A DNA stretch of 64,000 bases, from assembly GCA_002793515.1 (NCBI GenBank), contig PFEU01000008.1, positions 6,824 through 70,823 of the forward strand, in the 5' to 3' direction. Of this stretch, positions 3,261 through 61,937 are shown piece after piece. The DNA comes from Candidatus Uhrbacteria bacterium CG10_big_fil_rev_8_21_14_0_10_48_16. GTDB taxonomy: Bacteria; Patescibacteriota; Patescibacteriia; UBA9934; GWF2-40-263. Numbering within the stretch: the stretch's first letter is position 1; the number at the start of each line of letters is the position of its first letter. The notes below the pieces were generated by a model that worked only from the letters and a program-made list of their open reading frames with translations, was not told the DNA's origin and made no database searches. Both the position numbers and the translations under genes were made by a program.

Positions 3261-4183
3261 ACGTGTCGATCAAGGAGCGATTCAAATGTTTCACGGAACT
3301 CTGCCCGACGATCATTCTCATGAAATTTCAACATCTCATCGGTCACCACCACGCGAGAATCAAGATTGGCAATCTCGCGTAAATGCGACGGAAGACGATT
3401 TCTTTGAATAAGCCGGTACAACGATTCCCCCACCCTCCACTGGATAGGCAAGCTTGGGAAGCGGAGAGGTTGATGCATAGGATGAAGGGTGCGAGGATGC
3501 GCATTTGGAAGGGTGTGCGTCACCCATCGATTCTCCTTACGAAACTGATCAAAATTCTCATCACGATCAAAGACAGGAACAAGAGATCTCACCCAAAACG
3601 CCATGTAGTAATCTCGAGGAAGACATAATTCCTCCATGCCCAGCTTCTCTCGCGTCGCAAAAAAACTAAAACAAAATGGATCCTGTGCTTCTTGAGAATT
3701 CGTCCCGTGATTTGGTCTATGCCCTGTGAGGAGAAATGGAAGCACAAGCCAAAAACGCGAAGACCAAATAGCTCCCGTTTTGGTTACGACATACAAATCA
3801 ATATCACTCTGTGGAGTTGTCCCCCACCACGCCATCGTGTTCACCGCCCCCACCGCTCGAACAGCCGGAAGAAGGTAGAAATACTTTGCCACACGACGAA
3901 GGAGGACATACTTACGTTCCGCATCTAAAAATCGGATCTGTCGTTCCTGGATAAGAGACCCTATATCCTGTCCTCTGAGCGCATAAAACCCTTCATGAGA
4001 CTCGAGCTTCATTTTGAGCCATTCACTTTTGTCTAGAACGGTATAGATTTCTGAAAGATCGTACGCCCGTTCCGGAGTCAGGAGCCACTTCCAAATCTCA
4101 AACACCGTTAGAGGAGAAGAAAACATCGAAAACCAAAGAATTGTTCGCATGACGGATTGTTCAAGATCAGTCTGTTGCCCCAT
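3257..4183 (-). CDS. Hypothetical protein with a possible minimal nucleotidyltransferase-fold motif
   Basis: 308 aa, ATG start, 4-nt overlap with the downstream ligase gene. Segment GAVNTMAWWGTTPQSDIDLYVV resembles the G[ST]-x(9-13)-DxD signature of Pol-beta-type NTases. No other recognisable motif. Confidence 0.45.
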   Translation of the reverse strand: MGQQTDLEQSVMRTILWFSMFSSPLTVFEIWKWLLTPERAYDLSEIYTVLDKSEWLKMKLESHEGFYALRGQDIGSLIQERQIRFLDAERKYVLLRRVAKYFYLLPAVRAVGAVNTMAWWGTTPQSDIDLYVVTKTGAIWSSRFWLVLPFLLTGHRPNHGTNSQEAQDPFCFSFFATREKLGMEELCLPRDYYMAFWVRSLVPVFDRDENFDQFRKENRWVTHTLPNAHPRTLHPMHQPLRFPSLPIQWRVGESLYRLIQRNRLPSHLREIANLDSRVVVTDEMLKFHENDRRAEFRETFESLLDRHV

Positions 4184-7753: not shown

Positions 7754-8011
7754 TTAATCGCTTGTATGAGTTAAAATTCCAGCGAGATCTTCAAGGATCC
7801 CAGAAATAATATTTGTCGAGATAAAGATCCCAAGGAATACCACCGCCACTCCAAGAAGTTTATAAAAAAATCTTGATCCCCCCGCACCAAATTTCTCTTC
7901 AGCAAATGGCACGCTTCCAAACCAGGACAGGACGACGTCAGTTTTTTTCACCATAAAGAAACCCACAACCATGATGGCAAGCCCTAAAGGAATTCGTATA
8001 AATGGAGACAT
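7754..8011 (-). CDS. Small hypothetical membrane protein (85 aa, 2 TM)
   Basis: ATG-initiated ORF with two hydrophobic helices, 8 nt upstream of the methyltransferase gene. Confidence 0.4.
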   Translation of the reverse strand: MSPFIRIPLGLAIMVVGFFMVKKTDVVLSWFGSVPFAEEKFGAGGSRFFYKLLGVAVVFLGIFISTNIISGILEDLAGILTHTSD

Positions 8012-13128: not shown

Positions 13129-15756
13129 CTATCCAGAAGTTAACTGCTGTGTAAGAGTTTGCGCCTTTTTCTGAGCCTCTTCAAGATTTTGTCTCATATC
13201 AGCCACCACCTGCTCAGGCGCTTTTGACGTAAACGCTTCATTTGCAAGCTTTCCTTCAAGACGTTTGATGTACGCAACCGTCTCTTCGTATTGCACTGAA
13301 AGTTTTGCCCGCTCAGCTTCTTGGTCGATGATCCCTTCGAGTGAGACAAGAACTTCGATATCTCGAACAATAACAGACGCAAACTCTCCGACAGGTTTTT
13401 TATTCGCTTTTGTGAGTTTTCTAACACCAGCAAAAAGCTCAACTAGCTTAGATAGATCATCGGGAATGGCTCCAACGAGTACTACATCAACCTTTTGTTT
13501 TAAGGTGAGACCATACTCAGAACGAATATTCCGGATTGCAACTATGACACCCTGAACTTTCTCAAACCAACGTTCTGACTCTGAATGGTAGAAACTTTGT
13601 GATACTACTGGCCACTCGTGGACGATCAACATTGTCTCTGGATCAATCTGCTTCCATAATTCTTCGGTCACAAACGGCATGAACGGATGCCAATAAGCTA
13701 GCAGTCGCTCAAGAATAAAAAGGAGAATTGAATCTGTTGATTCATCTTTTTGTACCTTAGCCACTTCCAAATACCAATCAGCAAATTTACCCCAAGTGAA
13801 ATCACGCAACTTCTCTCCTGCTTGAGAGAACTCATAAGCTTCGAGATGATTCGTAACATCCACCTGAAGCCTACAAAAATGGGAAAGAATCCAATGATCC
13901 GCAAGCGTCTTTGGTACAATTTCTGATTCAGCGACGTGATGAATCTCCTCCACCTGCATGAACACGAAGCGAGAAATATTCCAGAGCTTGTTGGTGAAGT
14001 TTCGATAACCCGCGACCTTCGCCTCGGAAAGTTTCGAGTCGTTCCCTGGTGTGGAACCAATCGTGAGTGAGAGTCGCGTCGCATCCGCACCGTACTCGGC
14101 AATCATGTCGAGTGGGTCGATGATGTTGCCAAGCGACTTGCTCATCTTTCGCCCTTGCTCGTCACGCACCAATCCATGCAGATACACCTTCTCAAATGGA
14201 ATTTGTCCGAGAGTATACGTCGTCATGAGAATCATGCGAGCAACCCAAAAAAACAAAATGTCATAGCCCGTCTCAAGCACCGTCGTTGGATGGAAGGTTT
14301 TGAGATCATCGATCTGGTCAGGCCACCCAAGCGTCGAGAATGTCCAAAGCCCAGAAGAAAACCAGGTATCGAGCGTATCGGGGTCTTGTTCCCATCCATC
14401 CCCTTCTGGCAAGGTGCCCACAGTAATCTCTTCGCCTCGGTACCACACCGGCACACGATGACCGAACCAAATCTGGCGACTGATATTCCAGTCGCGCAAG
14501 TTGTCGATCCAGTGGAAGTAGGTTTTGTTGAAACGATCAGGGATGATTTCGATCTGTCCCTCGCGGACAACCGTCTGCATGAGTTGCTTAAGCGTCACCA
14601 TGTCTCCCTTCTTCATGTTCGCAAGCTCAGCACCCTTAAACGCAAACGCCTTATTCACATCAATAAACCACTGACGCTTTGGAAGCGGTTCAACCGCTTC
14701 GCCACAGCGGTAGCAAACGGATAGGTTGTGCACGTACTCCTCATCAATGTGATCAACCAATCCTTTGGTGGTGAGCTTCTCAACGATTTCCTCTCGAGCT
14801 TCGTGCGCATTCTTCCCAGCAAACGATCCAGCTGCGGCTGTGAACTTCCCGTCCTCGCCGATAATCTGCACGACGTCGAATCCGTACTTCTTAGCCAAAT
14901 CAAAATCGACAAAACTGTGCGCGGGTGTGATGGTCATGGCTCCGGATCCCATTTCCCTATCGGCCGCCTCATCGGCAACCATCTTGGCCATCACGGGTCC
15001 TTCAATCCATTCAACCTCAAACTCCTTCCCTACCAGATCCTTGTATCGATCATCTTGAGGATGGACGATAATGATTTTATCGAGGAATTTTGTTTCCGGT
15101 CGCGCTGTACCGATGACCACCGGCCCGTATTTGAAGTAATAAAACTTCGACTTATGTTCGCGATATTCCACCTCATCATCGGCGAGCGTCGACTTACAAC
15201 GCGGACACCAGTTCACCAGACGGTCACCACGATAAATGAGTCCATCGTCGTACATCATCTTGAAAACCGTATTCACGGCACGGTTGCGTGCCTCGTCGAG
15301 CGTGTATGCTTCTCGCGACCAATCGAGACTGGCCCCCATCTTCTTTGCTTGATTGACGATGGTGTCATGGGATTCAGACGCAAACGCTTCTACACGCTTC
15401 AAAAATTCTTCTCGCCCAAGTTCCTGACGGGGATCTTTCATTCCTTGTGCCATCAGCAACTTCTCAACCTTTGTTTGCGTGGCGATCGCTGCGTGATCCG
15501 TTCCCGGAACCCACAATGCTTTGCGCCAACGCATCCGATTGAAGCGGGTCATAATATCCTCAATGGCAAGCATCACCGCATGACCCATGTGAAGAGTTCC
15601 TGTGACGTTTGGGGGTGGAAGAACAATCGAAAAGCTTTCTGTTCGCTCACCAGGAAGATTATCGGGATTAAAAAAACCACTCTTTTCCCAAGCGGTATAG
15701 ATAGCGTCTTCGTATTCTTTGGCTTCGTAGGCCTTAGGGATATCTTGTTTTGCCAT
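13129..15756 (-). CDS. valS: Valine--tRNA ligase
   Basis: PPPNVTGTLHMGHA (HIGH), KMSKSLGN (KMSKS), an editing domain, and a C-terminal coiled coil. The likely start is MAKQDIP at 15756; the ORF-track start at 15795 adds 13 residues. Confidence 0.95.
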   Translation of the reverse strand: MAKQDIPKAYEAKEYEDAIYTAWEKSGFFNPDNLPGERTESFSIVLPPPNVTGTLHMGHAVMLAIEDIMTRFNRMRWRKALWVPGTDHAAIATQTKVEKLLMAQGMKDPRQELGREEFLKRVEAFASESHDTIVNQAKKMGASLDWSREAYTLDEARNRAVNTVFKMMYDDGLIYRGDRLVNWCPRCKSTLADDEVEYREHKSKFYYFKYGPVVIGTARPETKFLDKIIIVHPQDDRYKDLVGKEFEVEWIEGPVMAKMVADEAADREMGSGAMTITPAHSFVDFDLAKKYGFDVVQIIGEDGKFTAAAGSFAGKNAHEAREEIVEKLTTKGLVDHIDEEYVHNLSVCYRCGEAVEPLPKRQWFIDVNKAFAFKGAELANMKKGDMVTLKQLMQTVVREGQIEIIPDRFNKTYFHWIDNLRDWNISRQIWFGHRVPVWYRGEEITVGTLPEGDGWEQDPDTLDTWFSSGLWTFSTLGWPDQIDDLKTFHPTTVLETGYDILFFWVARMILMTTYTLGQIPFEKVYLHGLVRDEQGRKMSKSLGNIIDPLDMIAEYGADATRLSLTIGSTPGNDSKLSEAKVAGYRNFTNKLWNISRFVFMQVEEIHHVAESEIVPKTLADHWILSHFCRLQVDVTNHLEAYEFSQAGEKLRDFTWGKFADWYLEVAKVQKDESTDSILLFILERLLAYWHPFMPFVTEELWKQIDPETMLIVHEWPVVSQSFYHSESERWFEKVQGVIVAIRNIRSEYGLTLKQKVDVVLVGAIPDDLSKLVELFAGVRKLTKANKKPVGEFASVIVRDIEVLVSLEGIIDQEAERAKLSVQYEETVAYIKRLEGKLANEAFTSKAPEQVVADMRQNLEEAQKKAQTLTQQLTSG

Positions 15757-15961
15757 ATCGCAACGTAGTTTAGGGAAAAACGGGCTATTTTGCAACTATT
15801 TTGTGAAAATAGCTCATGACTCAGATAAATTGACAAAATGTCGATTTTGGAACACAATTCGTCCTCGTTCATTTCATCATTCCTGTTCGGAACAAAGGAC
15901 CTTTCACGGGTTCTGTGTCCCGAGCAGGAACTGTTCGGCCCCATAAACCGGAGGACCAGAC

Positions 15962-18262
15962 ATGGAAAAGAACCTGATGTGTGTGATGTGGATGTTGCTG
16001 GTCTTCCTGACCGGTTGCGACATCGCGCCGTTCATCGGCGACCTGAAGACTTCGGTCTGTGACTTTGATAAGGACGGACTCGCGCGCAGTAGCGACTACT
16101 GTGGCGGTCCGGACTGCGACGACGGCGACCAGGACGTGGGAGAGCCCACCATCTGGTACAACGACGTCGACCAGGACGGCTTCGGCGGTGAGACACAGGA
16201 AACTGCGTGCTCGGCCCCCCCGAACTTCGTCGACCACAATGGCGACTGCGACGACACCAGTGAACTCGTCCACCCAGACGCCATCGAAGTCTGCAACGGG
16301 TACGACGACAACTGCGACGGCGGGATCGATGACGAGAACATCCCCACCTGGTACGCAGACGTCGACACCGATGGCTACGGCGACCTCGCAAACTCTCAGG
16401 AGTCCTGCGACGAGCCCACGGGCTACGTCGACAACAGCGATGACTGCGACGACGGCGATGCGACGGTCAACCCTGAAGGGGTGGAGATCTGTGACGACGG
16501 CATCGACCAGGACTGCAACGGCATCATCGACGACGCCGACGGATCTGTCACCTGGTACGCAGACGCGGACGGTGACAGCTACGGCGACCCGGAAAATCTC
16601 CTCGCTACGTGCGTGGAGAACCCCGAAGGGTACGTCAGCAACGCCAACGACTGCGACGACAGCGAAGCAGACGTGAACCCCAGCGCCGTCGAGATCTGTG
16701 ACGATCTCATCGACAACAACTGCAACGGTGAAACCGACACGGACACCGAAGACGTCAACTGGTACGCCGACGTGGACGGTGACGGCTACGGCGACGAGTC
16801 GGACAGCCTCGTCGACTGTGCTCCGCCCGAGAGATACGTCGAAGACTTGACCGATTGCGACGATGCCGACGCAGACATCAACCCCGGTGTCGACGAAGTC
16901 TGCAACAACGACATCGACGACAACTGCGACGGGTCCCCCAACGCCTGTGACCACGCTGGAACCATCAGCTTCAGTACGGCAGATGGAACCATCGATGGCA
17001 TGGAGGTGGGTGGATACGCCGGATTTGCGCTCGCAAGCGCCGGTGACTTCAACCTCGATGGCTTCGACGATGTGGTGATGAGTGCCTCACAAGCACACAC
17101 CGTCTACATCTTCTTCGGCCCCATCACCGGAGCGCTCGACACGGACTCGGCCGACATCACCCTCGAAGGACCTTCGGGTTCCTACGCGGGAATGGCGGTC
17201 GCTGGTGCGTGCGATCTCGACGGAGACGGCAACAACACCGACATCCTCGTCGGTGGCCCCTACGACACCGACAACGGAAGCGAAGCCGGTGCCGTCTGGG
17301 TCATCTCTGGCCCCATCTCGTCCGGCACCTACTCGCTGGACGCCATCGCAGACGCCAAGTTGACGGGCAGTGCGGGAAGCCGGTTCGGCTCCTCCGTGGA
17401 CTGCTCCGGTGATAACGATGGGGACGGCAAGGATGACATCCTCGTCGGCGCTCCCAACGATGACGCAACGGCAGAAGATGCCGGCGCGGTCTATCTCGGG
17501 ATCAGCCCGGTCGCCAGCGGAAGCTCCACGAGCCTCATCTCGCTCCTGGGCGTGACCACTGATGATGCGACAGGCTCCATGGTCACCTTCGCGGACGTGG
17601 ACGGTGACGGCTATGCCGACGTCGTCATCGGCACCCATCAGGATGACGATGTCGATACCAATGCGGGTGCCATCGCCATCTTCCTGGGACCCCTCACCTC
17701 CTCGGCTTCGGTGTCCACCGCGGACATCAAGCTGACTGGCGAAAACACCTCGGACTTCGCGGGACGCACCCTCAAGGCGGGAGACATCGACGGGGACGGC
17801 AACGACGACCTGCTCGTTGGCGCCTACCAGTACGACTCCAGCACAGGAGCCTTCTACATCGTCTATGGCGGGGCGACACTCGCGTCCGGATCGCTGAGCA
17901 CGCACATCAAAGTCACGGGAGAAGCCTCAGGCGACAGCGCAAGCTACGGCCTGGGGGGAATCTGTGACTTCGATAGGGACGGAAGCAACGATCTGTTCAT
18001 CGGAGCTCGCACCGAGAGCTCATCGGCTTCGCAAGCCGGCGCGCTCTATATCTTCCACGGAGCTCCCACCAGCGGAAGCACGCTCGGCTCAGCATACGCC
18101 AAGTTCACCGGCGAAACCGCTGGAGACTACGCTGGAGGTGCTCTCGCCACGATGGACCTCGATGGCGACGGGTTCTGTGACGTCGTCACCAGTGCCTACC
18201 TGGGTGACTACACCGGATCGAACACCGGGCGAGTCTACGCCATCTACGGCCTGGGCTACTAG
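15962..18262 (+). CDS. GC-rich secreted lipoprotein with four Cys-rich 'putative metal-binding motif' (MopE-like) repeats followed by FG-GAP/integrin-alpha-type beta-propeller repeats; probable horizontally acquired gene
   Basis: 766 aa. Signal peptide with lipobox MLLVFLTGC, and GGAGGA 8 nt before the ATG. Four repeats of WY.DVDxDGYG…DCDDxDxxVxPxAxExCxxxDxxCdG, then at least 7 repeats of DxDGDGxxDxxVGA (FG-GAP). GC content and codon use (GAC, GGC, third-position G/C) are far above all neighbours. The antisense frames carry Arg-rich spurious ORFs typical of high-GC DNA. Confidence 0.8.
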   Translation: MEKNLMCVMWMLLVFLTGCDIAPFIGDLKTSVCDFDKDGLARSSDYCGGPDCDDGDQDVGEPTIWYNDVDQDGFGGETQETACSAPPNFVDHNGDCDDTSELVHPDAIEVCNGYDDNCDGGIDDENIPTWYADVDTDGYGDLANSQESCDEPTGYVDNSDDCDDGDATVNPEGVEICDDGIDQDCNGIIDDADGSVTWYADADGDSYGDPENLLATCVENPEGYVSNANDCDDSEADVNPSAVEICDDLIDNNCNGETDTDTEDVNWYADVDGDGYGDESDSLVDCAPPERYVEDLTDCDDADADINPGVDEVCNNDIDDNCDGSPNACDHAGTISFSTADGTIDGMEVGGYAGFALASAGDFNLDGFDDVVMSASQAHTVYIFFGPITGALDTDSADITLEGPSGSYAGMAVAGACDLDGDGNNTDILVGGPYDTDNGSEAGAVWVISGPISSGTYSLDAIADAKLTGSAGSRFGSSVDCSGDNDGDGKDDILVGAPNDDATAEDAGAVYLGISPVASGSSTSLISLLGVTTDDATGSMVTFADVDGDGYADVVIGTHQDDDVDTNAGAIAIFLGPLTSSASVSTADIKLTGENTSDFAGRTLKAGDIDGDGNDDLLVGAYQYDSSTGAFYIVYGGATLASGSLSTHIKVTGEASGDSASYGLGGICDFDRDGSNDLFIGARTESSSASQAGALYIFHGAPTSGSTLGSAYAKFTGETAGDYAGGALATMDLDGDGFCDVVTSAYLGDYTGSNTGRVYAIYGLGY

Positions 18263-59539: not shown

Positions 59540-60898
59540 ATGGAATCTGAGTCCGCTCGAATCAGAGCACAACTTACTTCGCAGAACGCTCTTTCATTTA
59601 TCGATGAATTTCTCTTCGCTTTTCCAAACGCCAATCTGTATCTTGTAGGGGGAGCGATCCGTGATGCTCTTCTGTCTCGAACCATGCATGAACGGGACTA
59701 CGATTTTGTTGTCACCCATCTTTCTCCTTCCCACCTCGAAGCTTGGTTCCAAACAAAAGGAGAGCTCCATCTCGTTGGTCAACATTTTGGCGTGTATAAA
59801 TTCATGCCAACTGGATTTACGTCAAAAGACATCTCCTTTATCGACATTGCCCTCCCAAGAACTGAACGTGTCGCTGAGGGAAGTCTTGGAGGCTATCGCG
59901 ATTTTGATGTCCAATCTGATCCAACCCTCCCGATTGAAACAGATCTTGCTAGGCGAGACTTTACCATCAACGCCATGGCGCTTGATCTACGCCACAACAT
60001 GCTCATCGACCCACATAACGGACACGTAGACCTCTCCCACAAGCTCCTGAAGGCCGTTGGTCAGCCTGAAGAACGGTTCGCAGAAGATCTTACCCGCATC
60101 CTTCGTGGGATCAGATTCGCTTCGGAACTTGGGTTCGACATTGAGCCAGAAACAGCACGTGCGATGAACACACTGATTGAGGAAATACATAGAATGCGCG
60201 AAGTCGGAGAGAAGTTTGAGTACGTGGTCCCAAGAGAGGTTATTGGTGAAGAAATCGCGAAAGCCCTTTCTCGCAACCCTGTTCAAGCTGTTCAAAAGCT
60301 CATCGAGCATCGCGTCATTGAAATTCTCTTTCCAAGTGTCCACTCCATCCTCCAGAAAAACCCTACCTACCTCCAGCCCCTTTCCCAGATCGTTCCTGGA
60401 GAACTTCCTCTTGCGCTTACCCTTCTCTTCAGAGAGCTTTCTCCGGAACAGGTGCGAGAGGCTTTCGACTTTTCAGGACTCAATACTCTTCCAAGAGGAT
60501 CGTCCTATCGCACAGAGCAGGAACAGATCCTTTGGCTCATCAGCGTCCTCCAATTGTCTCTCACGCCTGAGGCTATTCAAACCATGCGCGCCTCCCTATT
60601 TGAAAAACGCTTTTTCAATGGCAAAGGGATGATGTTGATACGTTGTCTTGAAATCTTGAAAGAAAAAGAACTCGCCCAAGCCGTAAAAAATCGTCGAAGA
60701 GAAATTGAAGCGCGTTGGCTCGTCGACCATGACGAATCGATCGCTCCGCTTCTATCAGGTCAGGACATTCTTTCTCAAGGAATTCCCCCTGGACCAGAAG
60801 TGCGTCTCTTGCTTGATCACGTCCGTGATCTTCAGCTCGATGGCAAACTCATGCGACGTGAAGAAGCTCTTCGTTGGTTAAAAGAAAAACAGGTGTAA
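59540..60898 (+). CDS. cca: CCA-adding tRNA nucleotidyltransferase / poly(A) polymerase family protein
   Basis: Head domain LYLVGGAIRDALLSRTMHERDYDFVV…RDFTINAMA…, with neck and body helical domains. Confidence 0.8.
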   Translation: MESESARIRAQLTSQNALSFIDEFLFAFPNANLYLVGGAIRDALLSRTMHERDYDFVVTHLSPSHLEAWFQTKGELHLVGQHFGVYKFMPTGFTSKDISFIDIALPRTERVAEGSLGGYRDFDVQSDPTLPIETDLARRDFTINAMALDLRHNMLIDPHNGHVDLSHKLLKAVGQPEERFAEDLTRILRGIRFASELGFDIEPETARAMNTLIEEIHRMREVGEKFEYVVPREVIGEEIAKALSRNPVQAVQKLIEHRVIEILFPSVHSILQKNPTYLQPLSQIVPGELPLALTLLFRELSPEQVREAFDFSGLNTLPRGSSYRTEQEQILWLISVLQLSLTPEAIQTMRASLFEKRFFNGKGMMLIRCLEILKEKELAQAVKNRRREIEARWLVDHDESIAPLLSGQDILSQGIPPGPEVRLLLDHVRDLQLDGKLMRREEALRWLKEKQV

Positions 60899-60931
60899 TA
60901 AAAATCCCCCAATGACTTGGGGGATTTTTAT
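60899..60931. terminator. Bidirectional rho-independent terminator
   Basis: aAAAATCCCCCAAtgacTTGGGGGATTTTtat is a perfect 13-bp stem with A/T tracts on both sides, 2 nt after the cca stop. Confidence 0.65.
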
Positions 60932-60934
60932 ACA

Positions 60935-61079
60935 ACGGAACTGATCTCCTGGTTACGATGCGGGCCAGCTAAGCTGGCTCACCTTCGCTTCCATGCTTCG
61001 GTTGAATCTCGGCAAAGCTGAGCTTTGCCTTCTGCATATTCAACCCCTTGCCTGCCGGCAGGCAGGGAGCTCAGCTCGG
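60935..61079 (-). ncRNA. Unassigned GC-rich structured element (candidate small RNA, tRNA 3' trailer or structured repeat) between tRNA-Val(GAC) and the terminator
   Basis: About 145 nt with much higher GC than the surroundings and nested perfect stems: GGTTGAAT…ATTCAACC (8 bp) enclosing GGCAAAG-ctgag-CTTTGCC (7 bp); CCAGC-taa-GCTGG; and the palindrome CCTGCCGGCAGG. No ORF. The nearest plus-strand gene starts about 1 kb downstream (62046), so a cis-regulatory leader role is unlikely. Strand is assumed from the co-oriented tRNA. Confidence 0.3.
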
Positions 61080-61156
61080 TGGTGGGCGACACAAGATTCG
61101 AACTTGTGACCTCCACAATGTCAATGTGGCGCTCTAACCAACTGAGCTAGCCGCCC
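61080..61156 (-). tRNA. tRNA-Val (anticodon GAC)
   Basis: Revcomp reads GGGCGGCtaGCTCagttggttaGAGCgCCACAttgacatTGTGGaggtcACAAGttcgaatCTTGTGTCGCCCacca. Anticodon loop TTGACAT gives GAC. Confidence 0.9.
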
Positions 61157-61215
61157 AGGCTAACGCTCTCGAAAGAACAGCAGAAGTGTACGAAATTACT
61201 TGCTCTTCGTCAATA

Positions 61216-61682: not shown

Positions 61683-61853
61683 CTAGAATATTGTCAGTGT
61701 ATAAAACAGTCCAAAAAAGAAAATCATAATAACCGCCGCAATGATGAGAGCCATGACTCCGACGATCCCCTCCTTATCTTCTTCACGAATGGCTTTACGC
61801 AAAAAGAAGATTCCAATTCCGAGTAAGACAATTCCGAGAAATAAAAATGGCAT
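61683..61853 (-). CDS. Small predicted membrane protein (56 aa, 2 TM), absent from the ORF track
   Basis: The ATG at 61853 (minus) translates to MPFLFLGIVLLGIGIFFLRKAIREEDKEGIVGVMALIIAAVIMIFFFGLFYTLTIF*. It ends 2 nt before the 154-aa ORF start, an operon-like arrangement. Confidence 0.35.
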   Translation of the reverse strand: MPFLFLGIVLLGIGIFFLRKAIREEDKEGIVGVMALIIAAVIMIFFFGLFYTLTIF

Positions 61854-61860
61854 AGTGTTC

Positions 61861-61937
61861 TGGTGGGGGTGGATGGACTCGAACCATCGGCCACCAAGGT
61901 ATAAGCTTGGTGCTCTAACCAGCTGAGCTACACCCCC
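61861..61937 (-). tRNA. tRNA-Ile with anticodon TAT (UAU), the AUA-reading type
   Basis: Revcomp reads GGGGGTGtaGCTCagctggttaGAGCaCCAAGcttatacCTTGGtggccGATGGttcgagtCCATCCACCCCCacca. 7-bp acceptor stem, anticodon loop CTTATAC, CCA encoded. The overlapping plus-strand ORF 61741..61926 is spurious. Confidence 0.8.

Follow-up and report, generated by a model that had tools for sequence, protein, structure and literature searches.

In the genome of an uncultured groundwater bacterium of the Candidatus Uhrbacteria, a GC-rich, multi-palindromic tract of about 150 nt separates the encoded CCA end of tRNA-Val(GAC) from its terminator, and comparison with relatives indicates that it is a species-specific insertion, placed exactly at the CCA/terminator boundary of a conserved promoter-tRNA-terminator unit. 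The reading we favour, to which we give about an even chance, is that of an orphan palindromic insertion that would be transcribed as the 3′ trailer of the tRNA, removed during maturation and most likely carried as a tolerated passenger. In its build the tract is like a MITE, REP or ERIC element, yet it fails the tests for each of those families. As an orphan, it adds a new example to a known kind, namely palindromic insertions in transcribed intergenic DNA and tRNA trailer elements.

The window, that is, the whole 64-kb stretch of DNA that was analysed, is about 94% coding. At the locus, the minus strand reads in the order promoter, tRNA-Val(GAC), tract and bidirectional terminator, and cca converges on it from the plus strand. 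The features are as follows.

61185 to 61213, minus strand: sigma-70-type promoter of the tRNA-Val unit, TTGACG-17 nt-TACACT (consensus scan)
61080 to 61156, minus strand: tRNA-Val(GAC) with encoded CCA (ARAGORN; Rfam RF00005, 69.5 bits)
60930 to 61079, minus strand: inserted element of about 150 nt, CCGAGCTGAGC...CAGTTCCGTTGTAT (filled versus empty sites; GC; MFE)
60898 to 60931: bidirectional intrinsic terminator ATAAAAATCCCCCAA / TTGGGGGATTTTTAT, common to tRNA-Val and cca (inverted repeat I1)
59540 to 60898, plus strand: convergent cca, encoding a CCA-adding enzyme of 452 aa (Pfam PF01743/PF12627)

The predicted tRNA-Val precursor, from promoter to terminator, is about 278 nt long. Its promoter is conserved, as a GTTGACG...(TCG)TACACT or CTATCAT pair is found 5′ of tRNA-Val(GAC) in seven relatives. 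The terminator AAAAATCCCCCAAGTCATTGGGGGATTTTT (60898–60931) has perfect 15-nt arms with A and T tracts, and its hairpin forms independently and persists in folds of the whole precursor. The other terminator-linked tRNAs of the window, Val-TAC and Leu-GAG, have their terminators directly after the CCA. The cca product matches a protein of Candidatus Uhrbacteria bacterium CG10_big_fil_rev_8_21_14_0_10 (Crystal Geyser, CPR/Patescibacteria) at 100% identity and its next-best match, in a collection of 5.8 billion proteins, at 69%.

Uhrbacteria have a conserved cluster of tRNA-Ile(UAU), a 56-aa ORF, a 154-aa ORF and tRNA-Val(GAC), towards which cca converges in many of them, and the site can be compared across species. 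In ten relatives (L002–L005, L007–L009, L041/L042, L044) the CCA end of tRNA-Val(GAC) directly abuts a terminator; one further relative, L006, is listed with them.

L002–L005 and L008 (cca 59–61% identical): ...GCCCACCA, then directly the orthologous terminator AAAA(A)TCCCCC...GGGGGATTTTT
L007 and L009 (tRNA-Val located elsewhere): their own terminator directly after ...GCCCACCA
L041/L042 (cca 63% identical; same field site): terminator directly after ...GCCCACCA
L044, the closest relative (154-aa protein 88% and cca 69% identical): CCA end, then ...GCCCACCAAAAATCCCCCAAGAAATTGGGGGATTTTT
L006: an unrelated 41-nt GC hairpin and then the terminator, after ...GCCCACCA

The terminator of the window is orthologous to the hairpin that stands directly 3′ of the CCA in the relatives, and the 3′ half of tRNA-Val is identical between L042 and the window. 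Because the relatives pass from the CCA directly into the terminator while the window holds 150 additional bases at that point, the tract is a species-specific insertion. The junctions read CACCA/AAAATCCCCC when empty and CACCA(150 nt)AAAAATCCCCC when filled, the empty allele expected for this species being CACCA/AAAAATCCCCCAAGTCATT. The boundaries, 61079 and 60930, are fixed by this comparison and are ambiguous by one A. Within the species no empty allele was found, every 100%-identical contig carrying the tract. The contig L056 was considered as such an allele and rejected, as it differs inside the tRNA, runs into the cca of another Uhrbacteria and is thus a cross-species chimera.

With ten relatives lacking it, the tract is probably needed neither for tRNA-Val expression nor for separating the two convergent units. 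The CCA/terminator junction may simply be permissive, as is suggested by the unrelated hairpin that L006 carries there. The L006 hairpin occupies 7778–7818, has the core GCUCUGAC-AGAA-GUCGGAGC and lies at the same junction of tRNA-Val(GAC). More broadly, the gap between the convergent tRNA-Val and cca units appears to be a hotspot of lineage-specific additions, because L044 has two extra genes in it. These lie at 3670–4793 of L044, between the tRNA-Val terminator and cca, and encode proteins of 184 aa (no domain) and 135 aa (DUF4440-like).

The tract is real sequence and not an artefact; more than 15 contigs of independent JGI, ENA and Logan assemblies carry it, flanks included, in identical form. 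It is apparently single-copy. No second copy was found by blastn in the window or in 18.5 kb of added flanks (82.5 kb in total, about 8% of the estimated 1-Mb genome), and over about 258 kb including relatives, a covariance model of the tract's sequence and fold matched only the tract itself. Contigs assembled at k=31 and k=141 traverse the whole tract from cca, and the k-mers of the tract occur nowhere else in the source metagenomes; since these short-read contigs cross it unbroken, those samples contain no identical second copy. The same contigs break 10–50 nt inside the tRNA, at 61091–61130, because co-occurring Uhrbacteria species share the tRNA sequence. A public metagenome contig, L016, is chimeric and carries unrelated sequence from window coordinate 61722 on, inside the 56-aa ORF.

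As RNA of the tRNA sense, the tract is predicted to fold at −67.2 kcal/mol, against −48.7 ± 4.0 kcal/mol for dinucleotide shuffles (z = −4.63; none of 200 as good), and together with the terminator it reaches z = −7.66. No other intergenic stretch of the window is as strongly structured. The predicted fold is a closed four-way junction, composed of a closing stem, P1, and three hairpins, H1 to H3.

61066 to 61077, minus strand: 5′ strand of P1, GAGCUGAGCUCC, closing stem and left TIR-like end (11 of 12 positions pair with 60938–60949)
60938 to 60949, minus strand: 3′ strand of P1, GGAGAUCAGUUC, closing stem and right TIR-like end (fold and pair probabilities)
61046 to 61067, minus strand: H1, palindrome CCCTGCCTGCC / GGCAGGCAAGGG, hairpin GCCUG-CCGG-CAGGC (inverted repeat I3)
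61000 to 61045, minus strand: H2, GGUUGAAU - 8-nt loop - GGCAAAGC UCA GCUUUGCC - GAG - AUUCAACC (inverted repeats I4 and I6)
60950 to 60993, minus strand: H3, UGG-AA-GCGA-AG-GUG-A-GCCAGC UUA GCUGGC-C-CGC-A-UCGU-AA-CCA (fold and pair probabilities)

Pair probabilities are at least 0.8 throughout the predicted fold except in H1, which rests on the CCUGCCGGCAGG palindrome and is weak (about 0.48), its arms (I3) being 11 nt long and 91% complementary. P1 (0.84–1.0) could gain two further pairs in the predicted fold, involving A76 of the tRNA and the base beside it. H2 contains 16 perfect pairs with probabilities of 0.93–1.0, and H3 is irregular, with three small internal loops and two G·U pairs. 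As the stems are near-perfect (16/16 pairs in H2), the insertion would be either recent or under selection. The antisense strand folds at −59.9 kcal/mol, 7.3 worse than the tRNA sense, and three G·U pairs are found only in the tRNA-sense RNA (p ~0.125 for such a one-strand bias). These sense-only pairs, together with the better sense fold, hint weakly at selection on the RNA.

The initial annotation had anticipated much of this architecture. It placed tRNA-Val(GAC), the tract and a shared terminator in this order on the minus strand, an arrangement confirmed by ARAGORN, Rfam and the inverted repeats, and it located the tract inside the tRNA-Val transcription unit, where it does lie, between the CCA end and the terminator and behind a conserved promoter. 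Its length estimate of about 145 nt described a real tract that the relatives show to be slightly longer (150 nt). Its description of the tract as much more GC-rich was overstated, although the tract (57.9% GC) is indeed richer than the window (46.6%) and the flanks (37–49%); the tRNA has 54.5%. The nested stems that it listed were all recovered by inverted-repeat analysis, in a structure beyond chance by the z-score above: GGTTGAAT/ATTCAACC at 61000–61007 / 61038–61045, GGCAAAGCT/AGCTTTGCC at 61011–61019 / 61021–61029, CCAGC/GCTGG within 60962–60980, and the CCTGCCGGCAGG palindrome within 61046–67. That the tract has no ORF was essentially right, since the open frames running across its stems (of 34–45 codons, plus one of 22 codons read by eye) were all judged spurious. 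The 22-codon frame, MQKAKLSFAEIQPKHGSEGEPA, lies on the minus strand in the region 60994–61039, inside H2/H3, with its ATG at about 61037 and an AAGGGG string 6 nt 5′ of the start; running through perfect stems, it is probably spurious.

The sequence AGCTNAGCT recurs three times in the tract.

61068 to 61076: core 1, in the 5′ strand of P1
61016 to 61024: core 2, top of H2
60967 to 60975: core 3, top of H3

Four matches to AGCTNAGCT exist in the window, against 0.45 expected; three are those of the tract and the fourth is the D arm of tRNA-Ile. When the tract was shuffled 20,000 times with its dinucleotide composition kept, three cores never arose. Their spacing is 49 and 52 bp, and those of H2 and H3 fold as AGC-UNA-GCU triloop hairpins. 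Across the window AGCT is neither avoided nor enriched (observed/expected 0.97), and AGCT avoidance or a restriction-modification signature was dropped on this ratio. Internal triplication of a 50-nt unit was likewise rejected, alignments between the modules being insignificant beyond the 9-nt AGCTNAGCT core. Regarding the tract as junk leaves the triple core unexplained. The near-perfect stems, the sense-strand bias in G·U pairs and stability, the tRNA-like GC and the triple core all argue against pure junk.

Searches for known relatives of the tract gave no family. With Rfam, at gathering scores over the whole window and at E ≤ 10 over 501 nt and 161 nt, only the true tRNA passes; other matches reach at best 8–23 bits against gathering scores of 39–100, and most of them fall on the terminator. 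Known RNA families (SRP, 6S, tmRNA, 5S, ribozymes, introns) were therefore set aside, and the initial annotation, which saw no SRP, 6S or tmRNA hallmarks, was right. A self-cleaving ribozyme was discarded by eye only, neither hammerhead core motifs nor a workable nested pseudoknot of the HDV type being visible, and a group II intron fragment was discarded as the tract has neither a domain V-like hairpin nor an Rfam match. ARAGORN finds no tRNA in the tract, which also matches no tRNA model, and shuffled local alignments against the four tRNAs of the window on both strands give no similarity (p > 0.08). Scans of viral contigs with tract-specific queries returned nothing, and a scan of them for the three-core pattern matched only simple AGCTN tandem repeats. 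Plasmid and phage blastn gave one insignificant 47-nt match, and a six-frame peptide search of the tract against 5.8 billion proteins gave none. A metagenome scan with the 5′ end of the tract produced two chance matches in high-GC coding sequence; it missed the source contigs and is thus uninformative on paralogues. A replication origin or terminus was rejected, as GC skew is monotonic across the window and places none nearby, and so was the scar of an integrase att site, as the tRNA 3′ end is not repeated at 60930–60950.

Two groups of known elements come close to the tract. One is that of regulatory RNAs derived from tRNA trailers, an established class (PMC8166272; PMC8383071), whose defining position, inside one transcription unit after the tRNA 3′ end and before the terminator, is also that of the tract. 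Like 3′ETS-leuZ of the E. coli glyW-cysT-leuZ operon, the tract is non-coding, extends from a tRNA 3′ end to the terminator and would belong to the tRNA precursor, from which it would likewise be freed by tRNA processing. However, 3′ETS-leuZ is short, conserved in enterobacteria and has demonstrated sRNA partners, whereas the tract is 150 nt long, predicted to be heavily structured and confined to one species.

The other group is that of small palindromic mobile elements. With ERIC/IRU, Correia/NEMIS, RUP and the Rickettsia palindromic elements the tract shares a length of 100–150 bp, the absence of an ORF, ends that form an inverted repeat, here an imperfect one, and a whole unit predicted to fold as an RNA hairpin; as in MITE-like families, it is inserted in an intergenic spot that would be transcribed, and presence and absence contrast at orthologous sites, ten relatives being empty. 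Such families, however, are multi-copy and usually have recognisable TIRs and target duplications (TA in Correia), whereas the tract is found once in 82.5 kb (about 8% of the genome), has no target-site duplication beyond one ambiguous A and has a weak TIR: its end CGAGCTGAGCTCC and the reverse complement CGGAACTGATCTCC match at about 11 of 14 positions, these being the bases of the P1 stem, with the six bases TTGTAT outside. A site between convergent genes and beside a terminator is typical of REP, BIME and ERIC elements. Like REP/BIME, the tract brings together imperfect, GC-rich palindromes in the 3′ region of transcription units, here between the convergent cca and tRNA-Val units. REPs, on the other hand, are units of 20–40 nt in tens to hundreds of copies linked to RAYT, while the hairpins of the tract share only the 9-nt AGCTNAGCT core, no further copy was seen in the 82.5 kb or in the covariance scan of about 258 kb, and the stretches inspected showed neither a transposase nor a RAYT gene. 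Elements of this kind are covered in reviews (PMC3184786; PMC10969869). IS200/IS605-derived elements also lack target duplications, have subterminal hairpins and adjoin hairpins or terminators; by inspection, the tract differs from them in having no conserved pair of left-end and right-end hairpins, mismatched end tetranucleotides and no tnpA or tnpB nearby.

Taken as an orphan insertion, the tract may have arisen and behaved as follows. GC-rich multi-palindromic DNA, probably of foreign or mobile origin, would have inserted exactly where the CCA end of tRNA-Val(GAC) meets the terminator, a junction that may be among the few harmless sites of a genome that is about 94% coding. Transcription of the tRNA would include it as a 3′ external transcribed spacer, and its RNA is predicted to fold on its own into the closed four-way junction, 5′ of an intact terminator hairpin. 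During maturation of the tRNA 3′ end it would be cut away, and it would be dispensable for tRNA-Val expression.

A different reading, rather unlikely in our view but sustained by the features that speak against pure junk, is that the tract is a newly acquired functional RNA: the four-way junction and the terminator hairpin, about 180 nt together, would be released endonucleolytically from the tRNA-Val precursor and persist as a stable RNA. By analogy with the 3′ETS of glyW-cysT-leuZ, such an RNA could, at the same rather low likelihood, work in trans, either as a decoy or sponge or by offering a scaffold to a protein that recognises the three AGC-UNA-GCU tops. This would suit a tract that lies within a promoter-to-terminator unit, has a strong and modular predicted fold, a tRNA-like GC above the genome average and a non-random three-fold AGCTNAGCT motif, keeps its stems intact in a streamlined genome, folds better in the sense than in the antisense direction (−67.2 versus −59.9 kcal/mol) with three sense-only G·U pairs, and belongs by position with trailer RNAs whose regulatory role is established (PMC8166272; PMC8383071). 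But all ten relatives do without the tract, so that it serves no conserved need; having no homologue, it gains no support from covariation; a p of only ~0.125 attaches to the G·U bias; and no single-stranded seed region is obvious. The presence in close relatives on which the initial annotation had staked its small RNA was not found, L044 included, and this weakens a conserved version of that proposal, leaving a lineage-specific, possibly released RNA. A narrower form, in which the tract is a recently captured functional structured CPR RNA born of tRNA processing, its three AGC-UNA-GCU tops making a platform for a protein or RNase, seems doubtful to us. Equally doubtful is that the tract belongs to a mobile family of non-autonomous elements with many copies (MITE, REP/BIME or IS200/IS605-derived), the others lying in the 90% of the genome beyond the inspected sequence or in the genomes of other CPR. 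The clean contrast of filled and empty sites, the imperfect inverted repeat formed by the ends, the small size without an ORF, the GC-rich palindromes and the position beside a terminator between convergent genes speak for it. Against it stand the single copy in 82.5 kb, the k=31 and k=141 contigs that cross the tract unbroken and so leave no identical copy in those samples, the missing target-site duplication, the absence of a transposase or RAYT gene from the stretches inspected, and empty viral, plasmid, phage and protein searches. Of the tRNA-linked repeat or MITE proposed initially, the insertion thus stands and the family does not: the tract has one copy in 82.5 kb, unique k-mers and no homologue. 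For a transposable element in general, a target-site duplication beyond one A, a strong terminal inverted repeat and a second copy are all missing.

That the tract acts as DNA is very unlikely. It would then be a putative binding array for a dimeric protein, formed by the three AGCTNAGCT and the CCTGCCGGCAGG palindromes, or a barrier between the convergent cca and tRNA units, between which it does sit; three identical palindromic cores are far beyond chance, and they follow one another at a regular distance of about five helical turns. Hairpin tops, however, account for the cores just as well. We know of no candidate protein that would bind them, AGCTNAGCT occurs elsewhere in the 64 kb only in a tRNA D arm, and the AGCT ratio across the window is 0.97. 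The relatives, moreover, manage with the same bidirectional terminator alone, so that the transcriptional insulator suggested earlier is unneeded. Least credible of all is a degenerate tRNA or a divergent known RNA (SRP, 6S, tmRNA, 5S, self-cleaving ribozyme or intron fragment). A four-way junction is superficially like a cloverleaf, and the strings AGCUCAG (D-arm-like) and GGUUGAAU (T-arm-like) are present, but the Rfam scores stay far below gathering level and fall mostly on the terminator, no hammerhead core or workable HDV-like pseudoknot was seen by eye, ARAGORN reports no tRNA there, and similarity to the four tRNAs of the window is at chance level. Nothing of the kind stands at this site in the relatives, which, with that chance-level similarity (p > 0.08), disposes of the tRNA remnant among the initial candidates.

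On any of these readings, the tract is a cleanly dated case of a streamlined CPR genome (about 94% coding) gaining structured non-coding sequence, and a local curiosity rather than a widespread system. If the orphan insertion is merely tolerated, tRNA trailers would be safe landing pads, as the L006 hairpin at the same junction supports. If a stable RNA is made, it would represent the de novo birth of an sRNA out of the 3′ spacer of a tRNA, in a phylum about whose RNA biology next to nothing is known; and should the platform reading hold, a previously undescribed class of tRNA-trailer RNA would have been caught at birth in a single species.

Several features of the neighbourhood deserve mention. 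The gene reads ...CCCA-CCA-CC-GAG at 61075–61083, with CC directly after the encoded CCA. The resulting CCACC is one base short of CCACCA, the tag that CCA-adding enzymes add to unstable tRNAs. Both this string and the pairing of P1 with A76 are probably coincidence. Upstream in the cluster, the tRNA-Ile with anticodon UAU (61861–61937, minus strand), a tRNA that is rare in bacteria, is conserved in L002, L004–L007, L009 and L044. The start codon of the 56-aa ORF (61683–61853), which is membrane-protein-like, comes 8 nt after the CCA end of this tRNA, and the 154-aa ORF (no Pfam match) and then tRNA-Val come next; because no terminator lies between these genes, they look like a mixed tRNA-mRNA-tRNA transcript. 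Elsewhere in the window, FG-GAP repeats and MopE-type metal-binding motifs characterise a 766-aa protein encoded at 15962–18262 (plus strand), in a region (14–20 kb) of 55–56% GC, about 10 points above the rest of the window, which may reflect compositional bias of the repeats or foreign origin. This gene adjoins valS, at 13129–15795 on the minus strand.
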